Source of the DNA: Nemertoderma westbladi
Lineage: Eukaryota > Animalia > Xenacoelomorpha
Reading direction: 5' to 3'
DNA length: 64,000 bases
Assembly (NCBI GenBank): GCA_032718475.1
Contig: JAUCBJ010005935.1
Coordinates: forward strand, 62,001-126,000
Position 1 is the stretch's first letter. Every line of letters begins with the position of its first letter. Positions 1-42,378 of this stretch are shown here, piece after piece. Made by a program: the position numbers and the translations under genes. The notes under the pieces were generated by a model that worked only from the letters and a program-made list of their open reading frames with translations, was not told the DNA's origin and did no database searches.

Positions 1-3000
1 TAATTCAACATGGAGTGAAGGTATATCACAGCAAGGGCGGGGAAGTTTTGTTGTATATGGAGTTGGTGTAGGTGTCGTGAATGTAGCTGGACATGATGTC
101 GCTTTATATGTTGTTGGACAAGATACAGGTGTCGTTGTAGTTGTTGATTCAATGCAGTCTATTATTACATTGACTGATCCATAACTATTGCAGTTATTGT
201 TTGAGAATTTAAGTTGTAAATAAAACTCTTTAGTATCAAAACAGTCAAGCTCTTTCTTCAAAATTATTATGTAGTCTTTTATTGCGAAATAATTGTTCTT
301 TGGATCAGGGTTTATGAGATAAACAGATGGCAGTTTTCCTTGAAAGACAGTTGATATGTCCAATAATGATGTTGATGGGGATGAATTTTCTGGAATATTT
401 AATTCAGCATGGAGTGAAGGTATATCACAGCATGGGCGGGGAAGTTTTGTTGTATAGGGAGTTGGTGTTGGTGTCGTGAATGTAGCTGGGCATGATGTCG
501 CTTTATATGTTGTTGGACAAGATACAGGTGTTGTTGTAGTTGTTGATTCAATGCAGTCTATTATGATGTTTATTGAACCATAACTATTGCAGACGTTGTT
601 TGAGAATTTAAGTTGTAAATAAAACTCTTTGGTATCAAAACAGTCAAGCTCTTTCTTCAAAATTATTATGTAGTCTTTTATTGCAAAATAATTGTTCTTT
701 GGATCAGGGTTTATGAGATAAACAGATGGCAGTTTTCCTTGAAAGACAGTTGATATGTCCAATAATGATGTTGATGGGGATGAATTTTCTGGAATATTTA
801 ATTCAGCATGGAGTGAAGGTATATCACAGCATGGGCGGGGAAGTTTTGTTGTATAGGGGGTTGGTGTAGGTGTCGTGAATGTAGCTGGACATGATGTCGC
901 TTTATACGTTGTTGGACAAGATACAGGTGTAGTTGTAGTTGTTGATTCAATACAGTCTATTATGACATTGACTGATCCATAACTATTGCAGTCATTGTTT
1001 GAGAATTTAAGTTGTAAATAAAACTCTTTGGTATCAAAACAGTCAAGCTCTTTCTTCAAAATGATCATGTAACCCTTTATTTCAAAATAATTGTTCTTTG
1101 GATCAGGGTTTATGAGATAAACATATGGCAGTTTCCCTTGAAAGACAGTTGAAATGTCCAATAATGATGTTGATGGGGATGAATTTTCTGGAATATTTAA
1201 TTCAACATGGAGTGAAGGTATATCACAGCATGGGCGGGGAAGTTTTGTTGTATATGGAGTTGGTGTAGGTGTCGTAAATGTAGCTGGACATGATGTCGCT
1301 TTATATGTTGTTGGACAAGATACAGGTGTAGTTGTAGTTGTTGATTCAATGCAGTCTATTATGACATTGACTGATCCATAACTATTGCAATTATTATTTG
1401 AGAATTTAAGTTGTAAATAAAACTCTTTGGTATCGAAACAGTCAAGCTCTTTCTTCAAAATTATCATGTAATCCTTTATTTCAAAATAATTGTTCTTTGG
1501 ATCAGGGTTTATGAGATAAACAGATGGCAGTTTTCCTTGAAAGACAGTTGATATGTCCAATAATGATGTTGATGGGGATGAATTTTCTGGAATATTTAAT
1601 TCAGCATGGAGTGAAGGTATATCACAGCAAGGGCGGGGAAGTTTTGTTGTATATGGAGTTGGTGTAGGTGTCGTGAATGTAGCTGGACATGATGTCGCTT
1701 TATATGTTGTTGGACAAGATACAGGTGTAGTTGTAGTTGTTGATTCAATGCAGTCTATTATGACATTGACTGATCCATAACTATTGCAGTTATTATTTGA
1801 GAATTTAAGTTGTAAATAAAACTCGTTGGTATCAAAACAGTCAAGCTCTTTCTTCAAAATTATTATGTAGTCTTTTATTGCAAAATAATTGTTCTTTGGA
1901 TCAGGGTTTATGAGATAAACAGATGGCAGTTTTCCTTGAAAGACAGTTGAAATGTCCAATAATGATGTTGTTGGGGTTGAATTTTCTGGAATATTTAATT
2001 CAACATGGAGTGAAGGTATATCACAGCATGGGCGGGGAAGTTTTGTTGTATATGGAGTTGGTGTAGGTGTCGTGAATGTAGCTGGGCATGATGTCGCTTT
2101 ATATGTTGTTGGACAAGATACAGGTGTAGTTGTAGTTGTTGTTTCAATACAGTCTATTATTACATTGACTGATCCATAACTATTGCAGTCATTGTTTGAG
2201 AATTTAAGTTGTAAATAAAACTCTTTGGTATCAAAACAGTCAAGCTCTTTCTTCAAAATTATTATGTAGTCTTTTATTGCAAAATAATTGTTCTTTGGAT
2301 CAGGGTTTATGAGATAAACAGATGGCAGTTTTCCTTGAAAGACAGTTGATATGTCCAATAATGATGTTGATGGGGATGAATTTTCTGGAATATTTAATTC
2401 AGCATGGAGTGAAGGTATATCACAACAAGGGCGGGGAAGTTTTGTTGTATATGGAGTTGGTGTAGGTGTCGTGAATGTAGCTGGACATGATGTTGCTTTA
2501 TATGTTGTTGGACAAGATACAGGTGTAGTTGTAGTTGTTGATGCAATGCAGTCTATTATGACATTGACTGATCCATAACTATTGCAGTTATTATTTGAGA
2601 ATTTAAGTTGTAAATAAAACTCTTTGGTATCGAAACAGTCAAGCTCTTTCTTTAAAATTATCATGTAATCTTTTATTTCAAAATGATTGTTCTTTGGATC
2701 AGGGTTTATGAGATAAACAGATGGCAATTTTCCTTGAAAGACAGTTGATATGTCCAATAATGATGTTGATGGGGATGAATTTCCTGGAATATTTAATTCA
2801 GCATGGAGTGAAGGTAAATCACAGCATGGGCGGGGAAGTTTTGTTGTATAGGGGGTTGGTGTTGGTGTCGTGAATGTAGCTGGGCATGATGTCGCTTTAT
2901 ATGTTGTTGGACAAGATACAGGTGTTGTTGTAGTTGTTGATTCAATGCAGTCTATTATGATGTTTATTGAACCATAACTATTGCAGACGTTGTTTGAGAA

Positions 3001-6000
3001 TTTAAGTTGTAAATAAAACTCTTTGGTATCAAAACAGTCAAGCTCTTTCTTCAAAATTATTATGTAGTCTTTTATTGCAAAATAATTGTTCTTTGGATCA
3101 GGGTTTATGAGATAAACAGATGGCAGTTTTCCTTGAAAGACAGTTGATATGTCCAATAATGATGTTGATGGGGATGAATTTTCTGGAATATTTAATTCAG
3201 CATGGAGTGAAGGTATATCACAGCATGGGCGGGGAAGTTTTGTTGTATAGGGGGTTGGTGTAGGTGTCGTGAATGTAGCTGGACATGATGTCGCTTTATA
3301 CGTTGTTGGACAAGATACAGGTGTAGTTGTAGTTGTTGATTCAATACAGTCTATTATGACATTGACTGATCCATAACTATTGCAGTCATTGTTTGAGAAT
3401 TTAAGTTGTAAATAAAACTCTTTGGTATCAAAACAGTCAAGCTCTTTCTTCAAAATGATCATGTAACCCTTTATTTCAAAATAATTGTTCTTTGGATCAG
3501 GGTTTATGAGATAAACAGATGGCAGTTTCCCTTGAAAGACAGTTGAAATGTCCAATAATGATGTTGATGGGGATGAATTTTCTGGAATATTTAATTCAAC
3601 ATGGAGTGAAGGTATATCACAGCATGGGCGGGGAAGTTTTGTTGTATATGGAGTTGGTGTAGGTGTCGTAAATGTAGCTGGACATGATGTCGCTTTATAT
3701 GTTGTTGGACAAGATACAGGTGTAGTTGTAGTTGTTGATTCAATGCAGTCTATTATGACATTGACTGATCCATAACTATTGCAATTATTATTTGAGAATT
3801 TAAGTTGTAAATAAAACTCTTTGGTATCGAAACAGTCAAGCTCTTTCTTCAAAATTATCATGTAATCCTTTATTTCAAAATAATTGTTCTTTGGATCAGG
3901 GTTTATGAGATAAACAGATGGCAGTTTTCCTTGAAAGACAGTTGATATGTCCAATAATGATGTTGATGGGGATGAATTTTCTGGAGTATTTAATTCAGCA
4001 TGGAGTGAAGGTATATCACAGCAAGGGCGGGGAAGTTTTGTTGTATATGGAGTTGGTGTAGGTGTTGTGAATGTAGCTGGACATGATGTCGCTTTATATG
4101 TTGTTGGACAAGATACAGGTGTAGTTGTAGTTGTTGATTCAATGCAGTCTATTATGACATTGACTGATCCATAACTATTGCAGTTATTATTTGAGAATTT
4201 AAGTTGTAAATAAAACTCGTTGGTATCAAAACAGTCAAGCTCTTTCTTCAAAATTATTATGTAGTCTTTTATTGCAAAATAATTGTTCTTTGGATCAGGG
4301 TTTATGAGATAAACAGATGGCAGTTTTCCTTGAAAGACAGTTGAAATGTCCAATAATGATGTTGGGGTTGAATTTTCTGGAATATTTAATTCAACATGGA
4401 GTGAAGGTATATCACAGCATGGGCGGGGAAGTTTTGTTGTATATGGAGTTGGTGTAGGTGTCGTGAATGTAGCTGGGCATGATGTCGCTTTATATGTTGT
4501 TGGACAAGATACAGGTGTAGTTGTAGTTGTTGTTTCAATACAGTCTATTATTACATTGACTGATCCATAACTATTGCAGTCATTGTTTGAGAATTTAAGT
4601 TGTAAATAAAACTCTTTGGTATCAAAACAGTCAAGCTCTTTCTTCAAAATTATTATGTAGTCTTTTATTGCAAAATAATTGTTCTTTGGATCAGGGTTTA
4701 TGAGATAAACAGATGGCAGTTTTCCTTGAAAGACAGTTGATATGTCCAATAATGATGTTGATGGGGATGAATTTTCTGGAATATTTAATTCAGCATGGAG
4801 TGAAGGTATATCACAACAAGGGCGGGGAAGTTTTGTTGTATATGGAGTTGGTGTAGGTGTCGTGAATGTAGCTGGACATGATGTTGCTTTATATGTTGTT
4901 GGACAAGATACAGGTGTAGTTGTAGTTGTTGATGCAATGCAGTCTATTATGACATTGACTGATCCATAACTATTGCAGTTATTATTTGAGAATTTAAGTT
5001 GTAAATAAAACTCTTTGGTATCGAAACAGTCAAGCTCTTTCTTTAAAATTATCATGTAATCTTTTATTTCAAAATGATTGTTCTTTGGATCAGGGTTTAT
5101 GAGATAAACAGATGGCAATTTTCCTTGAAAGACAGTTGATATGTCCAATAATGATGTTGATGGGGATGAATTTCCTGGAATATTTAATTCAGCATGGAGT
5201 GAAGGTAAATCACAGCATGGGCGGGGAAGTTTTGTTGTATAGGGGGTTGGTGTTGGTGTCGTGAATGTAGCTGGGCATGATGTCGCTTTATATGTTGTTG
5301 GACAAGATACAGGTGTTGTTGTAGTTGTTGATTCAATGCAGTCTATTATGATGTTTATTGAACCATAACTATTGCAGACCTTGTTTGAGAATTTAAGTTG
5401 TAAATAAAACTCTTTGGTATCAAAACAGTCAAGCTCTTTCTTCAAAATTATTATGTAGTCTTTTATTGCGAAATAATTGTTCTTTGGATCAGGGTTTATG
5501 AGATAAATTGATGGCAGTTTTCCTTGAAAGACAGTTGATATGTCCAATAATGATGTTGATGGGGATGAATTTTCTGGAATATTTAATTCAGCATGGAGTG
5601 AGGGTATATCACAGCATGGGCGGGGAAGTTTTGTTGTATAGGGGGTTGGTGTAGGTGTTGTGAATGTAGCTGGACATGATGTCGCTTTATACGTTGTTGG
5701 ACAAGATACAGGTGTAGTTGTAGTTGTTGATTCAATACAGTCTATTATGACATTGACTGATCCATAACTATTGCAGTTATTGTTTGAGAATTTAAGTTGT
5801 AAATAAAACTCTTTGGTATCGAAACAGTCAAGCTCTTTCTTCAAAATGATCATGTAATCCTTTATTTCAAAATAATTGTTCTTTGGATCAGGGTTTATGA
5901 GATAAACAGATGGCAGTTTTCCTTGAAAGACATTTGAAATGTCCAATAATGATGTTGTTGGGGTTGAATTTTCTGGAATATTCAATTCAACATGGAGTGA

Positions 6001-8820
6001 AGGTATATCACAGCAAGGGCGGGGAAGTTTTGTTGTATATGGAGTTGGTGTAGGTGTCGTAAATGTAGCTGGACATGATGTCGCTTTATATGTTGTTGGA
6101 CAAGATACAGGTGTAGTTATAGTTGTTGATTCAATGCAGTCTATTATGACATTGACTGATCCATAACTATTGCAGTTATTATTTGAGAATTTAAGTTGTA
6201 AATAAAACTCTTTGGTATCAAAACAGTCAAGCTCTTTCTTCAAAATGATCATGTAATCGTTTATTTCAAAATAATTATTCTTTGGATCAGGGTTTATGAG
6301 ATAAACAGATGGCAGTTTTCCTTGAAAGACAGTTGAAATGTCCAATAATGATGTTGTTGGGGTTGAATTTTCTGGAATATTTAATTCAACATGGAGTGAA
6401 GGTATATCACAGCAAGGGCGGGGAAGTTTTGTTGTATATGGAGTTGGTGTAGGTGTCGTGAATGTAGCTGGACATGATGTCGCTTTATATGTTGTTGGAC
6501 AAGATACAGGTGTAGTTGTAGTTGTTGCTTCAATACAGTCTATTATTACATTGACTGATCCATAACTATTGCAGTCATTGTTTGAGAATTTAAGTTGTAA
6601 ATAAAACTCTTTGGTATCAAAACAGTCAAGCTCTTTCTTCAAAATGATCATATAATCTTTTATTTTAAAATAATTGTTCTTTGGATCAGGGTTTATGATA
6701 TAAACAGATGGCAGTTTTCCTTGAAAGACAGTTGAAATGTCCAATAATGATGTTGTTGGGGTTGAATTTTCTGGAATATTTAATTCAACATGGAGTGAAG
6801 GTATATCACAGCAAGGGCGGGGAAGTTTTGTTGTATATGGAGTTGGTGTAGGTGTCGTGAATGTAGCTGGACATGATGTCGCTTTATATGTTGTTGGACA
6901 AGATACAGGTGTAGTTGTAGTTGTTGCTTCAATACAGTCTATTATTACATTGACTGATCCATAACTATTGCAGTCATTGTTTGAGAATTTAAGTTGTAAA
7001 TAAAACTCTTTGGTATCAAAACAGTCAAGCTCTTTCTTCAAAATTATAATGTAGTCTTTTATTGCAAAATAATTGTTCTTTGGATCAGGGTTTATGAGAT
7101 AAACAGATGGCAGTTTTCCTTGAAAGACAGTTGATATGTCCAATAATGATGTTGATGGGGATGAATTTTCTGGAATATTTAATTCAGCATGGAGTGAAGG
7201 TATATCACAACAAGGGCGGGGAAGTTTTGTTGTATACGGAGTTGGTGTAGGTGTCGTGAATGTAGCTGGACATGATGTTGCTTTATATGTTGTTGGACAA
7301 GATACAGGTGTAGTTGTAGTTGTTGATTCAATGCAGTCTATTATGACATTGACTGATCCATAACTATTGCAGTTATTATTTGAGAATTTAAGTTGTAAAT
7401 AAAACTCTTTGGTATCGAAACAGTCAAGCTCTTTCTTTAAAATTATTATGTAGTCTTTTATTGCAAAATAATTGTTCTTTGGATCAGGGTTTATGAGATG
7501 AACAGATGGCAGTTTTCCTTGAAAGACAGTTGATATGTCCAATAATGATGTTGATGGGGATGAATTTTCTGGAATATTTAATTCAGCATGGAGTGAAGGT
7601 ATATCACAACAAGGGCGGGGAAGTTTTGTTGTATATGGAGTTGGTGTAGGTGTCGTGAATGTAGCTGGACATGATGTTGCTTTATATGTTGTTGGACAAG
7701 ATACAGGTGTAGTTGTAGTTGTTGATTCAATGCAGTCTATTATGACATTGACTGATCCATAACTATTGCAGTTATTATTTGAGAATTTAAGTTGTAAATA
7801 AAACTCTTTGGTATCAAAACAGTCAAGCTCTTTTTTCAAAATTATTATGTAGTCTTTTATTGCAAAATAATTGTTCTTTGGGTCAGGGTTTATGAGATGA
7901 ACAGATGGCAGTTTTCCTTGAAAGACAGTTGATATGTCCAATAATGATGTTGATGGGGATGAATTTTCTGGAATATTTAATTCAGCATGGAGTGAAGGTA
8001 TATCACAACAAGGGCGGGGAAGTTTTGTTGTATATGGAGTTGGTGTAGGTGTCGTGAATGTAGCTGGACATGATGTTGCTTTATATGTTGTTGGACAAGA
8101 TACAGGTGTAGTTGTAGTTGTTGATTCAATGCAGTCTATTATGACATTGACTGATCCATAACTATTGCAGTTATTATTTGAGAATTTAAGTTGTAAATAA
8201 AACTCTTTGATATCAAAACAGTCAAGCTCTTTCTTCAAAATTATTATGTAGTCTTTTATTGCAAAATAATTGTTCTTTGGATCAGGGTTTATGAGATAAA
8301 CAGATGGCAGTTTTCCTTGAAAGACAGTTGATATGTCCAATAATGATGTTGATGGGGATGAATTTTCTGGAATATTTAATTCTGCATGGAGTGAAGGTAT
8401 GTCACAACAAGGGCGGGGAAGTTTTGTTGTATACGGAGTTGGTGTAGGTGTCGTGAATGTAGCTGGGCATGATGTCGCTTTATATGTTGTTGGACAAGAT
8501 ACAGGTGTTGTTGTAGTTGTTGATTCAATGCAGTCTATTACGATGTTTATTGAACCATAACTATTGCAGTTTTTGTTTGAGAATTTAAGTTGTAAATAAA
8601 ACTCCTTGGTGTCAAAACAATCTAATTCTTTCATCAAAATTAATATATAGTCATTTAGAGCAAAATAATTATTTTTTGGATCCTGATTTATAATAAATAC
8701 TGAAGGTAGTTGTCCATGAAGCATTATTGATGAATCCAATAACTGTGTTGATGGCATTGTGTTATCTGGGATAGATAAATCAGCATGGAAAGAGGGGAGG
8801 TCGCAGCAGTTTATGGGTAA
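1..8820 (-). repeat. Coding tandem array A: about 22 copies of a 399-bp (133-aa) unit, truncated by the window edge
   Basis: Marker atgtccaataatgatg recurs at 356, 755, 1154 ... 8333 (399-bp spacing, one 396-bp unit with an in-frame 3-bp deletion near 4360), with a diverged copy near 8732. Confidence 0.97.
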
Positions 8821-11800
8821 ATTTGTAGGACAAGGTGTTGGGGGAGGCATTGTTGGTAAAACCTCAAATACTGGACAAATCAATGGACAGAGAGGTTGTA
8901 ACAACATCTCAGAAATAGCTATTGGATATCGATTTGGTTGTAAAATATCAATATCATTGAGTGAATTTCGGAGCTGCACACTGCTTGCAAGTATTGGATT
9001 TGTACCATCAATGATAATTGCCATTAAAATTATTGCATATGTAGACAAAACCTCATTGCAATCAGTGTCATAATGTTGTTTAATTGCATATATAGATGTC
9101 CGAAATGAATTGGGAGTTTCTGCATTAAGCTCTGCCAAGAAGTCTCGTTCCTTGGAAGCAATAACAGATGGGTCTTCTTCTTTTGTAAGCAATATTAATT
9201 GGTAATCTTCATTAGTTACACAAATATCAATATTAACACTATTGCTTTCAGATGTCCCAATATCTGTTGCTCTAGCAACACATTGAAAACATTCACCTTT
9301 TAGTGCTGTAATATAATCTGATGTTCGTAGTATACCAGTTGTTCTGTCAATAGTAAATGACAAACATTTGTTAGAACTAACTAGACTATATTCTGTTCTT
9401 CCATTTCCAACAGTGTCTTTATCACTTGTGGTGAGTGTAGCAATGAAGCTGTGTGGAGCTACACAAGCATCTAAAATGAATTGATATTCGTTATCAAATT
9501 GTGGAGGATTGTCATTTGTATCCAGAATTGAAACATCAATAACAGCTATAGCCTCGCATAATGCTCCAATCAAATTAACTTTAACTATATGCCTGTCATT
9601 GATTTCAAAATCGGAATTAACAATATCAACTGCCTTGTTTCTAACTAGAAAGTTGTTTAAGTCACTTCCACTGCTGACGCTACCAATACTAATACTCTGT
9701 AAAGACCCCAAATTGATATAATCATGGAGTTCCACAAATTGTGTATTTTCTGTTATCTCCACAGCATTATATAAGCCATAACACCAGTCTGGTAGCTGGG
9801 ACGAGCATCTACTGGCACATCTTATGGCATCGTAGTGATCGATATAATTCAAACCATTACTTAGAAGTTCTGCAGTTACATCAGTAAGATCACTACTTAT
9901 TAATGTATATATCTGGTTGGTATTCATGAGTTTGTATTCATCATTAGTAGAAAAGTCACTTAAACGCACTGCAGTGAATTCAACTGTTGTTTCAGCTGTT
10001 TTAAGGACGCAATTCTTATCATACCGCGCATGTGCATTATTTACAATAATATGATTTTGTTTTAAATTTAATGTGTTTGAAAGTATTTGTTTCACTTGTT
10101 CAATCGACTTTTCAACCTCATTCAGTGGATTATTGAAGTGGATGGCAGCTAAATTAGAAGCAGTTTGAACACAAAGATTAGCATTTGTGCGCTTGCTATG
10201 CTCACCTTGATCTACAACTTGTGGTATACATAATTTGCATGCTCCTATTTCACTTTCAACAGGCTCTCTCTCAAGACGAACCATACCTGTTTTATCATTA
10301 ACAGAAAATGGTGCACAATTTGTTAAACTGTATGTGAGTTCATCTAAAGGGTCTGCATCTTGGGCGATAAGTTTAACTACTTCAGTCCCCAATTTATCAC
10401 ATTCATTAGCTACACCAAAAAAGGTATTTTCAGTGAACCGTGGAAATTCATCATTTATGTTTTGTACATTGATAGTCACTGTAGCAAAACGTACACAATG
10501 TTGCAATAAAACTTTGACGCTGAGAATGTATTTAGTTGAACCTTCATCATAGTTAAGTGCAGAAATTGTTACTATTTTATTTGGATTTTCTACACCAAAT
10601 AGACCTTGAATGTCCCCTTTAACAATTTCAATTTCAGTTACACCATCAACATTTATAATCCCAACTTCAGCACCAGCAATATTTTCATCTACCTTGAATT
10701 CTTCATAAATTGCATCTGAAAAGATACATGATACCATTGGAGTTGTAGTAGGGCACTGTATTGGTTCAGCTGTTGTAGTAATTTCAATACAATCAATATT
10801 TATGTTTAATGACCCATAACTGTTACAGTTGTTATTGAACAATTTAAGTTGTAAATAAAACTCTTTGGTATCGAAACAGTCAAGCTCTTTCATCAACAGA
10901 ATCTTATAGTCTTTTACAGTGAAATAATTGTTCTTTGGATCTGGATTTATCAGATAAACAGATGGCAGTTTTCCTTGAAAGACTGCTGATATGTCTAATA
11001 ATGATGTTGATATTGGTGAATTTTCTGGAATAGTCAATTCAGCATGGAGTGAAGGTATATCACAGCATGGACGGGGAAGTTTTGTTGTATATGGGGTTGG
11101 TGTAGGTGTCGTGAGTGTAGCTGGGCATGATGTCGCTTTATATGTAGTTGGACAAGATACAGGAGTAGTTGTAGTTGTTGATTCAATGCAGTCTATTATG
11201 ACATTTACTGAACCATAACTATTGCAATTATTATCTGAGAATTTAAGTTGTAAATAAAACTCTTTGGTATCGAAACAGTCAAGCTCTTTCATCAACAGTA
11301 TCTTATAGTCTTTTACAGCGAAATAATTTTTCTTTGGATCTGGATTTATCAGATATACAGATGGGACTTTTCCTTGAAAGACTGCTGATATGTCCAATAA
11401 TGATGTTGATATTGGTGAATTATCTGGAATAGATAATTCAACATGGAGTGACGGTATATCACAGCAAGGGCGGGGAAGTTTAGTTGTATATGGGGTTGGT
11501 GTATGTGTCGTGAATGTAGCTGGGCATGATGTTGCTTTATATGTTGTTGGACAAGATACAGGAGTTGTTGTAGTTGTTGATTCAATGCAGTCTATTATGA
11601 CATTTACTGAACCATAACTTTTACAGTTGTTGTTAGAAAACTTAAGTTGTAAATAAAACTCTTTGGTATCGAAACAGTCAAGCTCATTCATCAACAGTAT
11701 CTTATAGTCTTTTACAGCGAAATAATTGTTCTTTGGATCTGGATTTATCAGATAAACAGATGGGAGTTTTCCTTGAAAAATTGCTGATATGTCCAATAAT

Positions 11801-14800
11801 GATGTTGATATTGGTGAATTATCTGGAATAGATAATTCAACATGGAGTGAAGGTATATCACAGCATGGGTGGGGAAGTTTAGTTGTATATGGGGTTGGTG
11901 TAGGTGTCGTGAATGTAGCTGGGCATGATGTTGCTTTATATGTTGTTGGACAAGATACAGGAGTAGTTGTAGTTGTTGATTCAATGCAGTCTATTATGAC
12001 ATTTACTGAACCATAACTTTTACAGTTGTTGTTAGAAAATTTAAGTTGCAAATAAAACTCTTTGGTATCGAAACAGTCAAGCTCTTTCATCAACAGTATC
12101 TTATAGTCTTTTACAGCGAAGTAATTGTTCTTTGGATCTGGATTTATCAGATAAACAGATGGGAGTTTTCCTTGAAAGACTGCTGATATGTCCAATAATG
12201 ACGTTGATATTGGTGAATTATCTGGAATAGATAATTCTGCATGTAGTGAAGGTATATCACAGCATGGGTGGGGAAGTTTTGTTGTATAGGGAGTTGGAGT
12301 AGGTGTTGTTAAAGTAGCAGGACATGTTGTTGCTTTATAAGTAGTTGGACAAGGTACAGGAGTAGTTGTAGTTGTTGATTCAATGCAGTCTATTATGATA
12401 TTTACTGAACCATAACTTTTACAGTTGTTGTTAGAAAACTTAAGTTGCAAATAAAACTCTTTGGTATCGAAACAGTCAAGCTCTTTCATCAACAGTATCT
12501 TATAGTCTTTTACAGCGAAATAATTGTTCTTTGGATCTGGATTTATCATATAAACAGATGGCCATTTTCCTTGAAAGACAGTAGATATGTCCAATAATGA
12601 TGTTGATGGGGATGAATTTTCTGGAATATTTAATTCAGCATGGAGTGAAGGTATATCACAGCAAGGGCGGGGAAGTTTTGTTGTATAGGGAGTTGGAGTA
12701 GGTGTTGTTAAAGTAGCAGGACATGTTGTTGCTTTATAAGTAGTTGGACAAGATACAGGAGTAGCTGTAGTTGTTGATTCAATGCAGTCTATTATGAAAT
12801 TTATTGAACCATATCTTTTACAGTTGTTGTTAGAAAACTTAAGTTGCAAATAAAACTCCTTGGTATCGAAACAGTCAAGCTCTTTCATCAACAGTATCTT
12901 ATAGTCTTTTACAGCGAAATAATTGTTCTTTGGATCTGGATTTATCAGATAAACAGATGGGAGTTTTCCTTGAAAGACTGCTGATATGTCCAATAATGAT
13001 GTTGATATTGGTGAATTATCTGGAATAGATAATTCTGCATGTAGTGAAGGTATATCACAGCATGGGCGGGGAAGTTTTGTTGTACAAGGTGTTGGAGTAG
13101 GTGTTGTTAAAATAGCTGGGCATGATGTCGCTTTATATGTTGTTGGACAAGATACCGGAATAGTTGTAGTTGTGGATTCAATGCAGTCTATTATGACATT
13201 TACTGAACCATAACTTCTACAGTTGTTGTTAGAAAACTTAAGTTGCAAATAAAACTCTTTGGTATCGAAACAGTCAAGCTCTTTCATCAACAGTATCTTA
13301 TAGTCTTTTACAACGAAATAATTGTTCTTTGGATCTGGATTTATCAGATAAACAGATGGCCATTTTCCTTGAAAGACTGCTGATATGTCCAATAATGATG
13401 TTGATATTGGTGAATTATCTGGAATAGATAATTCTGCATGTAGTGAAGGTATATCACAGCATGGGCGGGGAAGTTTTGTTGTATAGGGAGTTGGAGTAGG
13501 TGTTGTTAAAGTAGCAGGACATGTTGTTGCTTTATAAGTAGTTGGACAAGATACAGGAGTAGCTGTAGTTGTTGATTCAATGCAGTCTATTATGACATTT
13601 ATTGAACCATATCTTTTACAGTTGTTGTTAGAAAACTTAAGTTGCAAATAAAACTCCTTGGTATCGAAACAGTCAAGCTCTTTCATCAACAGTATCTTAT
13701 AGTCTTTTACAGCGAAATAATTGTTCTTTGGATCTGGATTTATCAGATAAACAGATGGGAGTTTTCCTTGAAAGACTGCTGATATGTCCAATAATGATGT
13801 TGATATTGGTGAATTATCTGGAATAGATAATTCTGCATGTAGTGAAGGTATATCACAGCATGGGCGGGGAAGTTTTGTTGTACAAGGTGTTGGAGTAGGT
13901 GTTGTTAAAATAGCTGGGCATGATGTCGCTTTATATGTTGTTGGACAAGATACCGGAGTAGTTGTAGTTGTGGATTCAATGCAGTCTATTATGACATTTA
14001 CTGATCCATAACTATTACAGTTGTTGTTGGAGAATTTAAGTTGTAAATAGAACTCTTTGGTATCAAAACAGTCAAGCTCTTTCTTCAAAATTATTATGTA
14101 GTCTTTTATAGCAAAATAATTGTTCTTTGGATCAGGGTTTATGAGATAAACAGATGGCAGTTTTCCTTGAAATACTGCTGATATGTCCAATAATGATGTT
14201 GATGTTAGTGAATTATCTGGAATAGATAATTCAGCATGTAGTGAAGGTATATCACAGCATGGGCGGGGAAGTTTTGTTGTACAAGGTGTTGGAGTAGGTG
14301 TTGTTAAAATAGCTGGGCATGATGTCGCTTTATATGTTGTTGGACAAGATACCGGAGTAGTTGTAGTTGTTGATTCAATGCAGTCTATTATGACATTTAC
14401 TGAACCATAACTTCTACAGTTGTTGTTAGAAAACTTAAGTTGCAAATAAAACTCTTTGGTATCGAAACAGTCAAGCTCTTTCATCAACAGTATCTTATAG
14501 TCGTTTACAACGAAATAATTGTTCTTTGGATCTGGATTTATCAGATAAACAGATGGGAGTTTTCCTTGAAAGACTGCTGATATGTCCAATAATGATGTTG
14601 ATATTGGTGAATTATCTGGAATAGATAATTCTGCATGTAGTGAAGGTATATCACAGCATGGGCGGGGAAGTTTTGTTGTATAGGGAGTTGGAGTAGGTGT
14701 TGTTAAAGTAGCAGGACATGTTGTTGCTTTATAAGTAGTTGGACAAGATACAGGAGTAGTTGTAGTTGTTGATTCAATGCAGTCTACAATGATATTTACT

Positions 14801-17800
14801 GAACCATAACTTTTACAGTTGTTGTTAGAAAACTTAAGTTGCAAATAAAACTCTTTGGTATCGAAACAGTCAAGCTCTTTCATCAATAGTATCTTATAGT
14901 CTTTTACAGCGAAATAATTGTTCTTTGGATCAGGGATTATGAGATAAACAGATGGCAGTTTTCCTTGAAATATTGCTGATATATCCAATAATGATGTTGA
15001 TATTTGTGAATTATCTGGAATAGATAATTCAGTATGTAGTGAAGGTATATCACAGCATGGGCGGGGAAGTTTTGTTGTACAAGGTGTTGGAGTAGGTGTT
15101 GTTAAAATAGCTGGGCATGATGTCGCTTTATATGTTGTTGGACAAGATACCGGAGTAGTTGTAGTTGTGGATTCAATGCAGTCTATTATGATATTTACTG
15201 ATCCATAACTATTACAGTTGTTGTTGGAGAATTTAAATTGTAAATAGAACTCTTTGGTATCAAAACAGTCAAGCTCTTTCTTCAAAATTATCATATAATC
15301 TTTTAAAGCAAAATAATTGTTCTTTGGATCTGGATTTATGAGATAAACAGATGGCAGTTCTCCTTGAAATATTGCCGATATATCCAATAATGATGTTGAT
15401 ATTGGTGAATTATCTGGAATAGATAATTCAGCATGTAGTGAAGGAATATCACAGCATGGGCGGGGAAGTTTTGTTGTACAAGGTGTTGGAGTAGGTGTTG
15501 TTAAAATAGCTGGGCATGATGTCGCTTTATATGTTGTTGGACAAGATACCGGAGTAGTTGTAGTTGTGGATTCAATGCAGTCTATTATGATATTTACTGA
15601 TCCATAACTATTACAGTTGTTGTTGGAGAATTTAAATTGTAAATAGAACTCTTTGGTATCAAAACAGTCAAGCTCTTTCTTCAAAATTATCATATAATCT
15701 TTTAAAGCAAAATAATTGTTCTTTGGATCTGGATTTATGAGATAAACAGATGGCAGTTCTCCTTGAAATATTGCCGATATATCCAATAATGATGTTGATA
15801 TTGGTGAATTATCTGGAATAGATAATTCAGCATGTAGTGAAGGAATATCACAGCAAGGGCGGGGAAGTTTTGTTGTACAAGGTGTTGGAGTAGGTGTTGT
15901 TAAAATAGCTGGGCATGATGTCGCTTTATATGTTGTTGGACAAGATACCGGAGTAGTTGTAGTTGTGGATTCAATGCAGTCTATTATGATATTTACTGAT
16001 CCATAACTATTACAGTTGTTGTTGGAGAATTTAAATTGTAAATAGAACTCTTTGGTATCAAAACAGTCAAGCTCTTTCTTCAAAATTATCATATAATCTT
16101 TTAAAGCAAAATAATTGTTCTTTGGATCTGGATTTATGAGATAAACAGATGGCAGTTCTCCTTGAAATATTGCCGATATATCCAATAATGATGTTGATAT
16201 TGGTGAATTATCTGGAATAGATAATTCAGCATGTAGTGAAGGTATATCACAGCATGGGCGGGGAAGTTTTGTTGTACAAGGTGTTGGAGTAGGTGTTGTT
16301 AAAATAGCTGGGCATGATGTCGCTTTATATGTTGTTGGACAAGATACCGGAGTAGTTGTAGTTGTGGATTCAATGCAGTCTATTATGATATTTACTGATC
16401 CATAACTATTACAGTTGTTGTTGGAGAATTTAAATTGTAAATAGAACTCTTTGGTATCAAAACAGTCAAGCTCTTTCTTCAAAATTATCATATAATCTTT
16501 TAAAGCAAAATAATTGTTCTTTGGATCTGGATTTATGAGATAAACAGATGGCAGTTCTCCTTGAAATATTGCCGATATATCCAATAATGATGTTGATATT
16601 GGTGAATTATCTGGAATAGATAATTCAGCATGTAGTGAAGGAATATCACAGCAAGGGCGGGGAAGTTTTGTTGTATATGGGGTTGGTGTAGGTGTCGTGA
16701 ATGTAGCTGGGCATGATGTCGCTTTATATGTTGTTGGACAAGATACTGGAGTTGTTGTAGTTGTTGATTCAATGCAGTCTATTATGACATTTACTGATCC
16801 ATAACTATTGCAGTTATTATTTGAGAATTTAAGTTGTAAATAGAACTCTTTGGTATCGAAACAGTCAAGCTCTTTCTTCAAAATTATCATATAATCTTTT
16901 ATAGCAATATAATTGTTCTTTGGATCAGGGTTTATGAGATAAACAGATGGCAGTTTTCCTTGAAATACTGCTGATATGTCCAATAATGATGTTGATGTTA
17001 GTGAATTATCTGGAATAGATAATTCAGCATGTAGTGAAGGTATATCACAGCAAGGGCGGGGAAGTATTGTTGTACAAGGTGTTGGAGTAGGTGTTGTTAA
17101 AATAGCTGGGCATGATGTCGCTTGATATGTAGTTGGACAAGATACAGGTGTTGTGGTAGTTGTTGATTCAATGCAGTCTATTATGATATTGACAGAACCG
17201 TAACTATTGCAGTTATTGTTTGAGAATTTAAGTTGTAAATAAAATTCTTTGGTATCGAAACAGTCAAGCTCTTTCTTCAGAATTATTATGTAGTCTTTTA
17301 TAGCAAAATAATTATTCCTTGGATCAGGGTTTATGAGATAAACAGATGGCAGTTTTCCTTGAAATACTGCTGATATGTCCAATAATGATGTTGATATTGG
17401 TGAATTATCTGGAATAGATAATTCAGCATGTAGTGAAGGTATATCACAGCAAGGGCGGGGAAGTTTTGTTGCACAAGGTGTTGGAGTAGGTGTTGTTAAA
17501 ATAGCTGGGCATGATGTTGCTTTATAGGTAGTTGGACAAGATACAGGTGTTGTGGTAGTTGTTGATTCAATGCAGTCTATTATGACATTTACTGATCCAT
17601 AACTATTACAGTTGTTGTTGGAAAATTTAAGTTGTAAATAAAACTCTTTGGTATCGAAACAGTCAAGCTCTTTCTTCAAAATTATCATATAATCTTTTAT
17701 AGCAAAATAATTGTTCTTTGGATCTGGATTTATGAGATAAACAGATGGCAGTTCTCCTTGAAATATTGCCGATATATCCAATAATGATGTTGATATTGGT

Positions 17801-18753
17801 GAATTATCTGGAATAGATAATTCAACATGGAGTGAAGGTATATCACAGCATGGGCGGGGAAGTTTTGTTGTATATGGTGTTGGTGTAGGTGTTGTGAATG
17901 TAGCTGGGCATGATGTCGCTTTATATGTTGTTGGACAAGATACTGGAGTTGTTGTAGTTGTTGATTCAATGCAGTCTATTATGACATTGACTGATCCATA
18001 ACTATTGCAGTCATTGTTTGAGAATTTAAGTTGTAAATAAAACTCTTTGGTATCAAAACAGTCAAGCTCTTTCTTCAAAATTATCATGTAATCTTTTATT
18101 TCAAAATAATTGTTCTTTGGATCAGGGTTTATGAGATAAACAGATGGCAGTTTTCCTTGAAGTACTTCCGATATGTCCAATAATGATGTCGATATTGGTG
18201 AAGTATCTGGAATTTTTAATTCAACATGTAGTGAAGGTATATCACAGCATGGGCGGGGGAGTTTAGTTGTATATGGGGTTGGTGTAGGTGTTGTGATAGT
18301 AGCAGGACATGATGTCGCTTTATATGTAGTTGGACACGACACTGGCATATGTGTTGTTGTAATTTCTTTTCCGCATTCAACGTTGATCTTCATGGAGCCA
18401 TGCTGGAGGCAATTTCCATTTTTAAATGACAGTTGAAGATATATGTCATTAATGTCATGGCAATCGAGTTCTCTTACTAAGATTAATCTATTGAATTGTA
18501 TTTCAAAATACTTATGTTTAGGGTCTCTGTTTGTTATTTCTACACTGACTTCTGATTCTGGGAAATAGTCACCAAAATCCACAATTGTGGATAGGCCATA
18601 GCTATCAGGCACAGTGACTTCTGCGTTCAGTGTGGGGATGTGGCAACAGATAGGTGGTTGTGAAGTTGGGCATGGTGTAGGTACAATCACTGTCCCAGGT
18701 GCTTTGATATTCACTACCATAAACCCACTGCTTGGTGGTTCTAACGACTCTGC
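1..18753 (-). CDS. Giant coding exon 17 of a PCDH15/CDHR5-like mucin-cadherin; two arrays of 133-aa repeats around a unique cadherin/SEA-like core; open past the left window edge
   Basis: Acceptor tttag|GCA at 18753, starting AESLEPPSSGFMVVNIKAPG. The same minus frame reads open at 18753, across 8700-10860 (translated fully) and at position 1. An in-frame ATG near 18720 produces no ORF in the track, consistent with no stop inside the window. Cadherin motifs include NINDEFPRF, AQDAD and DTNDNPPQF. Confidence 0.9.
10745..18660 (-). repeat. Coding tandem array B: about 20 copies of the 399-bp (133-aa) unit
   Basis: Marker at 10991, 11390 ... 18173 with 399-bp spacing, plus a diverged founder-like copy at about 18360-18660 (CCHIPTLNAEVTVPDS...RELDCHD). 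Confidence 0.97.
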
Positions 18754-20276: not shown

Positions 20277-20374
20277 CTTCACTGTTATAGCAACATCGCT
20301 GACCAACGCTTCATTTAGAGTTATCTGTCCATTGTCTTTATTAATTTGTATCCCCGTGGTAGCAGTTGGAAATA
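20277..20374 (-). CDS. Cadherin exon 16
   Basis: ttatag|TA...FPTATTGIQINKDNGQITLNEALVSDVAITVK|gttggt; phases 1/0 match the neighbouring exons. Confidence 0.85.
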
Positions 20375-20626
20375 CTATAATATTAACAAATACCTTAATA
20401 AAAAAGACCTGTCAAAATTCAGAAAGAATCTAAAAAAACAATAAATATATAAATCCAGAATACTTTCTTTGACATAGTTAAAAATTAATTGAAGGTTAAT
20501 ATTATGTTAGACACTGATATGAATCAATATTTGGCATAATTGACCAACAGATGAACCAGAGAATATCTTGTATACACAAACAATAACTAATCAATCGCGC
20601 AGTAACCTTCACTACTTCACTCTCAC

Positions 20627-20769
20627 CCGAAGCAATGGAATAGGTGACTCCAGTTCCAGTAGCTTTGATCTCAGTAACTGTGTCACCCGTCGTTAAACTT
20701 TTGTAAGTATCAATGTTTGCCGGCAATATCAACGTCTCATCATATATTGCTTCATAGGTTACAGCGCAC
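20627..20769 (-). CDS. Cadherin exon 15
   Basis: ctag|G CAVTYEAIYDETLILPANIDTYKSLTTGDTVTEIKATGTGVTYSIAS g|gtgag; phases 2/1. Confidence 0.85.
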
Positions 20770-21704
20770 CTAGAATGTATAAGAATCAGTTTTATTTATC
20801 CCTTACATGGATACCTGAATATTCCAGGAACTCATATACACTTAAAATATAATTTGTAAAATTGTCAAGAAAAAATTTAACAAGATACCTTTTTATACTC
20901 TTAATGTAGTTATGTAAGCTATGTACGCAGTACAAGAGACACATCCATGGGATGCTAAATATAGACAGAACCGCGTTATTAGTGTTATTTTTCGACCCAA
21001 AATATTTTTTAATAAAGTGGTAAGTATATAGTATAGCAAGCTCTGAAAAAATTGAAGCTAATTCGTCCAGAGAGTTCTCGAGGTATAATCGATCAAAGTT
21101 TACATATTTGCCAACAAAAAAACTGGGCTGGGGTGATTTAAGAAATTGGGACAAATAAGCTGGTTGCTCTCAAAGGAAAGAAAGAAATCGAGAAATATGA
21201 ATAATCAGCAGGATTTTGACCGCTGCTACTTTTTTCACCAGAATAATGTTGAACTAGATATGAAATCCGATTTCAAGCTCAATTTCAAGTTCCTGCTGGG
21301 CAACCAAAACAGGTGATATAGACTCAACTGTAGGCTGTATCCCATGTCGGTCTGCTTGTAAAACCAGAATTATAACTAAAAACTTGGATTCCCCTGGCAG
21401 GTCGTAATGTGAATTAATCATTGGATATCCTTGTTGCTCATGTAGCTTTACTACCTAGAATCTTCGATTCAGGGATCTGCTGAAGACCTCCCCAAATTCG
21501 AAAGGGTAAGGCATGTTCTACATTAGATAATCTAATAAATTGGAACGTAATGCTGTAAATTTTTATTATTTGCCATTATTTTACATCATTAAATAATCTA
21601 TCAATGATTTAGAAATCACAGGCAGTAACACTTCCTCTGATGGTGAAATTATTAAGGGAAGCATTAAATCCAGTGCTGCATTACTGTAAATTTTAAACAC
21701 TTAC

Positions 21705-21808
21705 CTAAGCAAACCAGTTGGACAGGTTCCGAATTGGAGAGACAAAGTTTCACCTGGTTCTCGAATGTTAATTGTAACAGAGGTTGTAGCACTATTACCA
21801 AAGGAATC
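21705..21808 (-). CDS. Cadherin exon 14
   Basis: cacag|DSFGNSATTSVTINIREPGETLSLQFGTCPTGLL ag|gtaag; phases 0/2. Confidence 0.87.
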
Positions 21809-21972
21809 CTGTGATAATATATTTATGTTTGGTTTAATATTCATGTTTATATTCGGTTAACTAATTAATATGTATAAAATGTTACAATAGTGATAATAAT
21901 AATAATAATTATATAAACACATTAACACTAAAATAATTAATAATTAGTTCTTTAATACTATGAATATCTAAC

Positions 21973-22042
21973 CTGAGCTATGACTTGCAGAACCCTTTGA
22001 CCCGGTGAGGTAAACATCTCTGAGGAACGAATGATTCCCGTT
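21973..22042 (-). CDS. Cadherin exon 13
   Basis: ttcag|A TGIIRSSEMFTSPGQRVLQVIAQ|gttag; phases 2/0. Confidence 0.85.
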
Positions 22043-22360
22043 CTGAAATACAGTATGAATTAGACAATTCAATGGCACTAACACTACATATAACACTACT
22101 GCATGTATAAAATAAACTATTATGTGAAGAAACCTTTGCACCGTAGCGGGAAGAGTGGTAGATCTATACTGGCGAATAGTCGCTTCTATAAATCAACCAC
22201 TCATTTTTAAATTAACTATATTGACGCTAATATACTAAACTTAGCTTTATGTGATGGACATAGAATAAAGATAAATAGATAAATAAATAGATGGTAATGA
22301 TAGGCATAGGCACTACAGTATGACCACAGGTCCAGTAATATCACTTGCAACATGACTTAC

Positions 22361-22552
22361 TCTTGGTCGATTACAAAACCAGTCGCGCTTCCCGCACCGA
22401 GGCTATATGTAACATCGGCCCCAGGTTCAACTGTAACGACAGTAGCTATGGTTTCTGATGGTTCACCAGTTGCTATGGTAACGGGTAATGTTCCTTGTAT
22501 AACAGAGAATGTTGGTGTGTAGGCATTTACAGTGACAACAGCAAAAGATTGA
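22361..22552 (-). CDS. Cadherin exon 12
   Basis: ttcag|T QSFAVVTVNAYTPTFSV...ADVTYSLGAGSATGFVIDQ ga|gtaag; phases 2/2. Confidence 0.88.
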
Positions 22553-22904
22553 CTGAAAGATAGAAAACATATCATTCAATACACGAAGCTACCTTCGACA
22601 TTGATATCGAGAATGGCAACGACTCCTACAACTATATGTCCTGCAACAAAGCCCATCCTAAGCCAGTTAAAAATTAAAAGTATTAGAATTAAACATTATC
22701 ATTATTTTAATATCTAAAAGACATTAAAAATAAAAAATAAGGACAGAATTTTGTAATTATAAATAAAATAAAGATCAGCTTCTGAAGAATTTCATTAAAA
22801 TCATCCTATAGAATGAGTCAAAGGGGGGTAGGCCTCTATCTCGATTAGTGCTGCATGAGTAGCATAATTATTATTTTACTATTAAAATATCAGCCGTCAC
22901 TCAC

Positions 22905-23110
22905 CTTGGTACCACAGAACCAGTTTCTTCTGCTCTAACCAGTAATACATACTGACTCCCAGACTGTATTGCTGAGGCTTTCATTCCCTCTGTCGTTATA
23001 GAAACCTGACCTGATCCGTCGACTTCAAACAAAGTTGCACCGTTGTTGGACACAAATGGAAGGCTGTATGCGATTGGGTTGGTCTTCGTATCTTCATCGC
23101 TAGCAGAGAC
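22905..23110 (-). CDS. Cadherin exon 11
   Basis: cacag|VSASDEDTKTNPIAYSL...LFEVDGSGQVSI...YVLLVRAEETGSVVP ag|gtgag; contains the AxDxD motif; phases 0/2. Confidence 0.92.
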
Positions 23111-23174
23111 CTGTGAAAAACGATAAAGCAGATAATGCATGCATTATATGCTGATCCGATGTGCTTATCAGATA

Positions 23175-23325
23175 TGCGCCTTTCATCCACTGGGGTCGAT
23201 AAAATGAGTACCAGTTAAATAACTGGGAGCAAATCTTGGGATAGGAGTAGCGCCCACCCCTACCCTCGGGTAGCAGCTATCGAAAGAGGAGCCTTCGGGT
23301 CGCCTCCGGCTTCGGCCGACTGTTT
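23175..23325 (+). mobile_element. Probable SINE fragment
   Basis: gcctttcatccactggggtcgataaaatgagtaccag resembles, from memory, the conserved central domain of MetaSINE-type SINEs; GC-rich island within a short intron. Confidence 0.4.
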
Positions 23326-23536
23326 GCTTTTGCTTGTTTGCTATGCTTAGGAATGCATGCATATAGGACCGACCTCTGAAAGTAAAGAGCAAGGAGGTAC
23401 TGTACCATCATTATTAAGATTATTTAATACTGCAGCATCAAACCACACATTAAGGAAAATCAAATCTATTGTTACTATAAATTTTGCAGCAACTAATCTC
23501 TCAGTCAATATTACCCTGTTGTATAAGGTGACTCAC

Positions 23537-23698
23537 CTTCACTACTCCGTTCTGATTGGGTACACCGTTTGTAGTCAGGATTATTGCAGCGGTATATTGG
23601 CTGTCTGGCACGAACTTTGGAGGCGTCTCATTAATGTCTGTTACTGTAACTGCCACTTGAGTTGACTCACTTCTACCCTGGTCATCAGTGACTGTCAC
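23537..23698 (-). CDS. Cadherin exon 10
   Basis: ttag|VTVTDDQGRSESTQVAVTVTDINETPPKF...GVVK|gtgag; DINE-PP-F linker motif; phases 0/0. Confidence 0.92.
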
Positions 23699-24280
23699 CT
23701 AAACAAGTACCATATGATAGATGCAGTAGTTGGTAGATTGGGGGTTGCCCTGGCCTGGGGATATAGGTTGATTGCATGGATACTAATGGAGTGCAGTAGA
23801 TTGGCCGTGTGGAGCCCTGCAGTTAGTCGCTTATTGCTATTGGTTGCATTCCCAATCATATACTACTATTGTGCTAACAAGTTGTAACATTATTGTTTCA
23901 TATTTTATGTGTATTTACCTAATTATCAGGTTGTAGGGAGTTCGGCTGGTAGTAGTAACGGGCATATAGGGGCTCTACATAGTGGTTTGCGGGTAACTCT
24001 GTCAGAGGTGGAAGGAAGTGGTATGTTGTATTGTTTTCATCATTTTTATGCATTTTATTGTTAGAGACAGAACCAAAAATACTATTGTCTCATTTTTAAC
24101 AACTGAACTACACAGTGATAGGGGCGGACAATCACATAGAGCACGGAATCAATGCTGTGCTAATGTTTATAGATTGATGAAACCAAAAAAAATCTTGCAC
24201 TCTCAAACCCTAAGATTGGGAAAATTGATCAGATAGGGAGTAACAAGTGGCCGCGGCCGGTAATATTCATATTATAACTA

Positions 24281-24792
24281 ATTGTGGGGCGAGCCACGAA
24301 GTTGGCGGAGCCTTAGCGAATTGACACTGTTAGGGGGTGGGTCAATTTATGCAAATAGTTGTCGTCGTCGTCGTCGTCGTCGTTGTCGTCGTCGTCGTTG
24401 TCGTCGTCGTTACGATTTTGACATGCTAATAACTTTGTCGGATTTAAAGCTGCCAAGTTGAAAATTTGTAGGTATCAATATGAGCAAAAGTTGAGATTTT
24501 TGAGAGACTTTCAGACACCATCAGTGCAATGGTCTCCCGCTAGAGGGCCACATGTCTAAACATTAAATGCCCTCCCATTTCTTTGCTTTTAATCCGTTTA
24601 AGCTGAAACTTGGCAGATATGTATTAGACCATTAGCTGTGACTTTCAAAGGAGGCGAATCCATCTGCAGTTCTCCAGTCTGCCGCTAGAGGGCCAACGTG
24701 ACTATTTGCATAAATTGACCTACCCCCTAACAGTGTCAATTCGCTAAGGCTCTGCCAACTTCGTGCTGCGCGAAGTCCCCACTTCGTGTACT
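24281..24792. mobile_element. Non-autonomous Helentron/DINE-like element with (GTC)n and internal inverted repeat
   Basis: Near-identical in reverse complement to 41975-42458; inverted repeat 24297-24358 vs 24703-24764; microsatellite at 24361-24410; terminal motif shared with 41450 and 61025. Confidence 0.65.
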
Positions 24793-25469
24793 GTTATATA
24801 TAATATATATATAATTATGAGATGAGTTTTTTTTGAGGAATAGATAATTGGATTTATAAATGTTTACTAAAATATTGTTTCTTAAATTCAATCACACTAA
24901 ATGAGCTATTCAACGAAAGATAGATGTAGCCAGTTAAAATCAGTACTCCGGTATCAAGGCCAATGCCATGACCGATATTATCTAGCACATGGGCGTGAAG
25001 AATACCAGGATTTCACTTTTCGGTCGACTTTTTATTGGAATTTTATATATTAAGAAGTTTTATTTTTTTAATTTATCTTTTATTAAGTGTTTTATAGCGC
25101 TTATTTCTGTCTTATATATAACCTATACTAATTTGTTTATTGTTTTTGTTAGATTCAGCCCTTCTTGTATCCTGTGTTTTTGGTTAAAACATGGTATTCT
25201 TCACAATGGCCATGGGGGTAACGGCAAAGTGAAATATAACGGCAGAAAGTCTGGTATTTTTCATATGGGCCGTTTACACACCGTTGTTTGCGGTTGTTTG
25301 ATCACCTTGATCGATTTAAGGGGAAAGGGAAACTAACTTTATTTTTCAATATTTGTATTAATAAATGAATACGCCTTGAAGTCGGCATGTTGTTGGCTGT
25401 TATATATTATTCTTGAGATTTGCAGGACTTTTACTTAACTCTATATTAAATTATTATAAAATCATTTAC

Positions 25470-25607
25470 CTGAATATTGAATGGATCGGGGGACGTCTCC
25501 TTATCTAGACTTCCCGAGAGGCTAAGAAGCACAGCTCCATTAACTTCAGTAGCAGTGAATGGAGCGGTGCTTGGTGACACTGAGTATGTCCTATTAGGAA
25601 CCTCGCC
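25470..25607 (-). CDS. Cadherin exon 9
   Basis: tatag|GEVPNRTYSVSPSTAPFTATEVNGAVLLSLSGSLDKETSPDPFNIQ|gtaaat; LDKE motif; phases 0/0. Confidence 0.9.
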
Positions 25608-26329
25608 CTATAAATTAATAAATGGATGATTAAATGTTTGAAATATCGAAACAAAGTGGACTATATAACCTACATGTTATCAAAATATATCATTGCCCCA
25701 ATCTGTGTTACTTCTCACAGTCATCCTCCTGACACCGACCCCATCCCACCAGACTCGACACGCAACCATCATTAATCCCGTTATGCGCTCTTAGCTCGTT
25801 CGTCTTTATTGTTAAATTAAAGCGTAGATGTAACTAAATGTTGCGATGGGTGTGAGAGATAAAGAAAAAATAAATAGCGTATTCATTATATTTTTTTACT
25901 GATAATGTTCTCTATCTATCACATTTAATAATCGTTTTACTCACTTTTTTGTTTTTTGTTTTCAATTCATGTTTCAATTTTTTCCGTCTGAGAAAAACGT
26001 CAGAGAAACTTATCAAAATGACCCAAGAAACGGCCAGGCGAAAACTGTACTTTAAGGCCATTATTCGTAAATTATACTACGTTAAGTGGTTTTAATATTC
26101 GAAGAAACGTCATGATTTTATAACGTAAGATGTTTTTTTAAATGCAAAAACATTATGCTATTGGACTATATATAACGTATAATTTGTTTGGAGAAACCAA
26201 CAAATAAGCCCATTTTTCAGAAATGTTCTAACCACATTCACCAAAATGTGATTTTTAATGCATTCAGCTAAAAGCTATATTTTTTTTTATATAGTAACCT
26301 GTTAATAAATAATTTAATTTATATCTTAC

Positions 26330-26548
26330 AGGCATTAGTTTGTCCGCGTCTGTTAAAGTGAGTAACAGTGTCCGTTTTGTGGTCCCATCAATAAGTGTTG
26401 TCCCTAATGGGGAATTCTCCGGAATAACCCCGGCGAAAGAAGGTGAGCTGAAAACGGTTGGAAATTCGTTCACGCCGTTTATGTTGATCGAGATTTGGGC
26501 TCGACGATAGAAACCTTCTTGGTTGTTTAACGGATTCACCTCTAACGC
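26330..26548 (-). CDS. Cadherin exon 8
   Basis: tttag|ALEVNP...ININGVNEFPTVFSSPSFAGVIPENSPLGT...LTLTDADKLMP|gtaag; PEN and DAD motifs. Confidence 0.93.
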
Positions 26549-26679
26549 CTAAAATATATACAAAAAATAATTTTACAAACAGCTCGGAAATGGTGATGTA
26601 TAGAAATGTAACTTTCCTATTCATTTAATATACTTGGCAGCGTGTATCTTCAGTAACAGCGGTGTATCATGCTCGACAC

Positions 26680-26880: not shown

Positions 26881-27046
26881 GCGTAAGTTTGACGCCAAGC
26901 CGGCAAAACTTACTTCATATATACTGTATGTAATATATATAATGCCGCTGCAATGCAGCATGCCGTCAGTCACACTTAGACATAATTCTAAATAAAATGA
27001 AGGATAATAGAGACTCTGAAACTGAAACAATATAACAATCACCAAC

Positions 27047-42291: not shown

Positions 42292-42378
<87 letters not shown>

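Follow-up and report, generated by a model that had tools for sequence, protein, structure and literature searches.

At the left end of the window (the whole stretch of 64,000 nucleotides of Nemertoderma westbladi DNA that we analysed) lies a giant exon on the minus strand, whose reading frame stays open from position 18753 to the window's left edge. Its frame runs through a divergent repeat unit (unit 0), a first array of 133-aa units (array B), a spacer of about 650 aa and a second array (array A). The unit sequence quoted in the initial annotation was found again as the exact translation of positions 432-34 of the minus strand. Each full unit consists of a 95-aa domain, called the bead hereafter, and a threonine-rich 38-aa linker. 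Within the window we count 42 complete beads over the two arrays; array A runs off the window, and the count is a minimum. The features needed in what follows are these:

1..18753, minus strand: giant exon, open over 6,251 codons, starting GCAGAG after a clear acceptor ttttag
1..8808, minus strand: array A, 22 complete units and an edge fragment, all with 7 Cys, running off the window
34..432, minus strand: 133-aa repeat unit (exact translation)
148..432, minus strand: bead, predicted 95-aa degenerate cadherin (EC) domain (AF2 pLDDT 79.6, Foldseek and VIA-align matches, motif mapping)
430-432, 427-429, 241-243, 190-192 and 154-156, minus strand: bead Cys C1, C2, C64, C81 and C93
34..147, minus strand: linker, 38 aa, 68% Pro/Thr/Ser
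118-120, 91-93 and 55-57, minus strand: linker C105, C114 and Tyr126 (Cys in the likely ancestral state)
8809..10773, minus strand: spacer, two homologous Cys-rich EC-EC-X modules (Pfam Cadherin, PF00028, E 4e-15, above cut-off)
10731-10441, 10440-10162 and 10161-9823, minus strand: spacer module a, ECa1, ECa2 and X1
9789-9502, 9501-9211 and 9210-8896, minus strand: spacer module b, ECb1, ECb2 and X2
10774..18249, minus strand: array B, 18 full units (9 with 8 Cys) and one domain-only unit (unit 19)
18250..18648, minus strand: divergent unit 0 (domain 43% identical, same five domain Cys)
20277..29102, minus strand: 14 predicted small GT-AG exons, about six EC repeats (canonical calcium motifs in the earliest)
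40742..40861, minus strand: predicted exon, first EC repeat from strand D to strand F, with the strand-F Cys
42559..42749, minus strand: predicted exon, start of the first EC repeat, including the N-terminal Cys

Beads and linkers are under purifying selection and constitute real selected coding sequence. The comparison covered 39 full 133-aa units, setting aside the edge fragment, the divergent unit 0, the domain-only unit 19 and a copy of 132 aa. Across these units the beads have a pN/pS of 0.21 and the linkers, which are better conserved, one of 0.13. Among the copies we saw a single indel: one unit has lost 3 nt, a whole codon. Several units are 100% identical to one another, and at 832-5616 array A contains a six-unit higher-order duplication with paired units that are 98.7-100% identical. 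Joints between the end of one unit and the start of the next are present in contigs of all four DNA runs, which come from at most three samples, and 1.9-kb contigs identical to the spacer occur in three runs of two samples, one of them perhaps the source of the assembly. Contig depth in run X1 is 3,419 for the unit and 37 for the spacer, depth not being usable as copy number; the exact copy number alone could be an assembly matter. Loose contig ends in runs X1-X4 carry other unit variants with different linkers, as well as a shorter 352-nt form, and these variants lie beyond the window, either further along the cadherin gene or in paralogues.

The giant exon is predicted to belong to an animal cadherin gene, according to a manual model for which GT-AG exons were picked by hand from the DNA. 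Together with 16 upstream exons it makes 17 that join without a stop into 7,081 aa, both ends missing. Exon phases are consistent across the model, the frame holds with or without one 48-nt exon, and the first residues of the giant exon finish an EC domain begun in the preceding exon. The upstream exons encode about seven EC repeats in all, of which the early ones keep canonical calcium motifs; in these exons and in the spacer we find DxNDN-type, DxD and LDxE motifs and matches to an EC profile (built from fetched cadherins) with E values down to 2e-21. Tandem EC repeats with canonical calcium motifs outside the arrays, together with the predicted fold of the bead, assign the protein to the cadherin superfamily. 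A scan for a signal-peptide exon gave no convincing candidate, and a scan of 6,978 aa for transmembrane segments saw none (highest hydropathy over 19 residues 2.0), the C-terminus lying beyond the window. Fat/CDH23-like and bacterial cadherin-repeat proteins of a generic kind were all that word-based homologue searches brought up, and the 40-aa exon 40861-40742 searched alone had no PDB match.

The cadherin-like fold that the initial annotation proposed for the bead is supported as a predicted seven-strand EC fold. AF2, supplied with a 16-row alignment of near-identical copies, returned a beta-sandwich in five models with pLDDT from 79.6 down to 50.7, the two weakest at 61 and 51. The Foldseek search that had been suggested as a check gave cadherin entries in all 41 rows shown (best E 5.6e-4). 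With VIA-align against 48,161 chains, cadherins took the top 37 rows and 47 of 50 overall; the best match (Z 10.0, rmsd 2.8, 93 aligned) was to PCDH15 EC6-7, tied within 1 Z with other cadherins, and the best non-cadherin reached Z 8.2. The EC profile scored the bead at 14.7 bits, above 1,000 of 1,000 shuffles, and Atlas scores of 0.89 for a cadherin fold are to be read as leads only. A profile of 16 beads searched against 1.84 billion proteins found a single match, a bacterial cadherin-repeat protein (E 2.4e-6) without the Cys pattern of the bead, so that no relative with this pattern came to light among them; the hhalign probability of the bead profile with that protein was only 7%. Pfam gave no cadherin match to the 133-aa unit, and a viral fold library none at E 0.001. 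Resistin and similar Pfam matches were discarded as sub-threshold noise (E 0.07, against a cut-off of 25 bits), as were the nine matches of a PDB sequence search with the bead, all at E 0.9 or worse, as chance.

Cadherin repeats are defined by calcium-rigidified linkers. In the beads, the canonical calcium linker is lost. We used the roles of the XEX, DRE, DxNDN, DxD and XDX motifs as given in the accessible text of PMC5120219 and scored 40 of the 42 complete domains, without unit 0 and the 132-aa unit. The Glu of DRE is replaced by Phe in 40/40, turning LDRE into LDCF as first described, and DxD is absent, again as described, its position being taken by F-Q-G in the alignment. Asn replaces the top Asp (AxD) in 39/40 domains, and XEX has its Glu in 20/40. 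The PEN motif, said to be kept, reads PEN in half of the domains (20/40) and PD (18/40) or PG (2/40) in the rest. DxNDN had been read as DCIES; its loss is real, the register is not. A strand-G profile made from 319 canonical strand-G ends and applied to four units in six registers places C93 at the first Asp with 4.1 bits, against -14.8 for the D92 register, and the C93 register is the best of the six in all four units, so that C93 and not D92 replaces this Asp and the motif reads CIEST. The bead is left without the DRE, DxD, top Asp and DxNDN ligands of a canonical calcium-binding EC. D63, D66 and D92 are invariant (40/40) and E95 nearly so, and a residual metal site is therefore possible. 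D25 was considered as a kept DxD ligand and dropped, as the EC profile places it on strand B.

As initially reported, full units carry seven Cys or, in part of array B, eight: the counts are 30/39 and 9/39, and all the 8-Cys units belong to array B, where they make up half (9/18) of the full units. None of the units compared lacks any of the seven Cys, against invariance in 60/126 of the other columns (48%), with p about 0.006 on the assumption of independent columns, which these are not. Synonymous variation occurs in five of the seven codons for these Cys. C64 is the middle residue of DRE, and with C93 at the DxNDN Asp the two stand at the lost base calcium site. C1 and C2 fall at the x-P after DxNDN, in an extension of the EC-profile alignment, and C81 in the F-G hairpin; these stand at the lost top calcium site. 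The presence of Cys at both sites lends support to two staples, C64-C93 and C1/2-C81, which we infer from position along with a linker loop C105-C114. The beads are thus probably held by disulfides in place of calcium. The earlier proposal that disulfides replace Ca2+ stands as far as the placing of Cys on the base and top sites goes, the S-S pairs themselves being putative.

The odd number of Cys, also stressed in the initial annotation, is real and likely derived from eight through a change of Cys126 to Tyr. Eight residues before each CC one finds Cys in 11 of 43 cases and Tyr in 32, and every one of these Tyr codons is TAT, one base from TGT. This -8 position is Cys in both of the copies that diverge most, so that eight Cys is likely the ancestral state and the second Cys of CC likely has its partner in C126. 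The share of Cys126 in the contig depth of the four runs is 576/2,310, 895/2,999, 3,154/4,571 and 0/154. The 8-Cys form is interspersed in array B, so that drift by gene conversion fits as well as selection, and the domain-only unit 19 leaves an odd Cys, which means that the pairing scheme is not closed everywhere. In unit 0 the eighth Cys precedes its domain.

The linker has 26 Pro, Thr or Ser among its 38 residues, compared with only 31% for the giant exon overall, and its Cys-free stretches measure 9, 8 and 19 aa. It shares with mucins in the broad sense a tandemly repeated, Pro/Thr/Ser-rich sequence. The description as a mucin linker is therefore apt for its composition and less so for its size, since it is short and lacks the long PTS stretch of a classical mucin. 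O-glycosylation of the linker is likely. Pfam scans of the units and the spacer revealed no VWD-C8-TIL, CysD or cystine knot.

The spacer between the arrays is of a different make. Its two modules are 23% identical to each other (E 2e-10), and ECa1 and ECb1 have an N-terminal and an F-G Cys, the same pair as in the bead. Each module (8896-10731) counts ten Cys at conserved positions. Protocadherins of the Cr-2 and Cr-3 subfamilies have a ferredoxin- or SEA-like membrane-adjacent domain after the last EC, then a single transmembrane helix and a cytoplasmic tail. Domain X of the spacer is possibly a SEA-like domain of this membrane-adjacent kind, a lead that comes from an Atlas SEA score of 0.83, itself weak, and from alignments that PCDH15 chains alone extend past the EC into domain X. 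The AF2 model of domain X (pLDDT 32) was too low for a fold search, and neither phmmer against the fetched cadherins nor an X-only profile against the PDB gave a match. If it is a membrane-adjacent domain, its occurrence twice in mid-protein would be unusual.

The explanation that we favour, with a probability of about 0.6, is that calcium-free, disulfide-stapled cadherin beads and likely O-glycosylated linkers form a mucin-like extracellular fibre. The C64-C93 staple would close the bead at its base, in the place where calcium was bound by the DRE and DxNDN ligands. The top would be closed by a bond from C81 to either C1 or C2, resembling the clamp that EC1 domains of the tip type have, and within the linker C105-C114 would form a small loop. 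This leaves one Cys of CC, whose ancestral partner would have been C126 of the preceding linker; with the spread of Cys126 to Tyr through the arrays, roughly three in four beads would carry one thiol without a partner. Such thiols would pair between beads, either within one chain or between chains, and interchain pairing would produce a covalently linked mesh in the apical matrix, the glycocalyx or mucus, with the calcium-binding N-terminal repeats staying as the adhesive or tethering end. That unmatched thiols do link chains covalently, the cross-linking raised in the initial annotation, is a tentative step, to which we give about one chance in three or slightly more; each may equally pair with a neighbouring bead of the same chain. 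It would be bolder still, and rather unlikely at present, to suppose that a cadherin gene independently became a covalently cross-linking mucin through staples in exchange for calcium, amplification into dozens of copies together with glycosylated linkers, a single Cys to Tyr change that frees one thiol per bead, and lengthwise polymerisation without VWD or cystine-knot ends like those of the gel-forming mucins.

The same beads and staples are compatible with a membrane-tethered stalk without cross-linking, which differs from the fibre on polymer formation: beads and linkers would lengthen a protein of the CDHR5/PCDH15 type and project its adhesive tip, spare thiols would pair within the chain or be capped, and Cys126 to Tyr would have spread neutrally by unequal crossover. 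We hold this to be the less probable outcome, at roughly one chance in three or a little under. It would fit the first EC repeat, with the two-Cys pattern described for EC1 of CDHR5 and PCDH15, the combination of EC repeats, mucin-like domain and membrane anchor in CDHR5 (PMC8691648, accessible text), the mixture of Cys and Tyr units in array B and the near-identity of the duplicated blocks in array A. It does not readily explain why C1, C2, C105 and C114 are kept in 39/39 units despite an odd number of partners, and the scan for transmembrane segments, though it stopped short of the C-terminus, speaks against it too.

The invariance of D63, D66 and D92 and the strong conservation of the bead could also mean that beads act as non-covalent cross-linkers or adhesive sites, perhaps binding one metal ion, for which the CysD domains of MUC2 offer a precedent in what is accessible of PMC3195396. 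We regard this as improbable. The metal ion in particular is hard to reconcile with key ligands that are replaced in every copy or nearly (Glu to Phe, Asp to Cys, top Asp to Asn in 39/40), and with the next bead 38 residues away the three-ion linker cannot form in the way described in PMC5120219, again to the extent of its accessible text. An array inflated or misjoined by assembly, or an exon that is a non-expressed repeat, appears very improbable. The identity of several units and the fact that none of the contig pieces listed spans the spacer with both flanks could be taken in that sense; the pN/pS values, the long open frame with its one whole-codon indel, the head-to-tail joints in every run, the spacer contigs without differences and the consistent exon phases argue against it.

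The protein is a cadherin superfamily member closest in style to CDHR5 and PCDH15, by likeness of design. The accessible text of PMC8691648 describes a strand A-F disulfide clamp in EC1 of both and, for CDHR5, four calcium-linked ECs with one mucin-like domain and a membrane anchor. CDHR5, a mucin-like protocadherin of the Cr-3 subfamily, resembles the present protein in uniting EC repeats and a mucin-like region, and CDHR5 and PCDH15 both resemble it in a first EC with an N-terminal and a strand-F Cys; two Cys in places matching this Cr-3 trait, the EC1 strand A-F disulfide, are found in the manual three-exon model. Unlike CDHR5, our protein has at least 42 single calcium-free ECs that alternate with short Cys-bearing linkers in one exon. 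The gel-forming mucins MUC2, MUC5AC and MUC5B likewise set disulfide-rich beads within P/T/S-rich sequence, as far as the available portions of PMC4948705 and PMC3195396 describe them; here, by contrast, the fold is that of cadherin and not CysD, and the linkers have only 38 aa. MUC2 CysD beads cross-link non-covalently, every disulfide being internal (PMC3195396, same portion), and compared with this even, fully internal set the Cys count here is odd in most units. Strict alternation of one folded domain with one PTS linker is known from a Xenopus SEA-PTS mucin (PMC4948705, in the part available), where the repeated domain is SEA and not a cadherin EC; in our protein SEA-like would apply at most, and as a lead, to the two X domains of the spacer. 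Loss of XEX, DRE/DYE, DxNDN, DxD and XDX is shared with the calcium-free linkers of PCDH15 EC9-10 and Drosophila N-cadherin, which are single hinges between directly joined ECs and for which the accessible text of PMC5120219 mentions no disulfide replacement.

The beads-on-a-string design of mucins is thus known, and cadherin domains as the beads appear to be new: cadherin beads alternating with PTS linkers had no description in the literature searched, which included few subscription papers, and supplementary inventories could list one. Whether disulfides can stand in for calcium in the fold can be tested directly on a natural EC with Cys at both lost calcium sites, and the natural 7-Cys and 8-Cys variants, one base apart, provide a built-in control for cross-linking. 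If the favoured reading is true, a cell-adhesion protein has been turned into a mucus-like fibre, and if the chains polymerise, this would be an independent route to a mucus-like gel from adhesion-protein parts.

The DNA around the upstream exons is rich in repeats of other kinds. About 179 copies of a 53-bp minisatellite lie at 31277-40786 and spread donor-like sites along the intron. The minisatellite unit corresponds to the splice donor of exon 40861-40742 together with the final bases of that exon, and so seems to have arisen from the exon's end. Satellites of 21 bp and 48 bp occupy 43752-45597 and 45710-48848, upstream of the first cadherin exon found, and a dispersed repeat with a (GAC)n microsatellite lies in opposite orientations at 24300-24800 and 41500-42450. 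On the minus strand at 30751-31269, a 172-codon frame gives the impression of an LTR-retroelement integrase tail. On the plus strand, an intronless nardilysin-like ORF of 1,072 aa (52250-55468), possibly a retrocopy, shares no more than 38% identity with any of the animal proteins listed.
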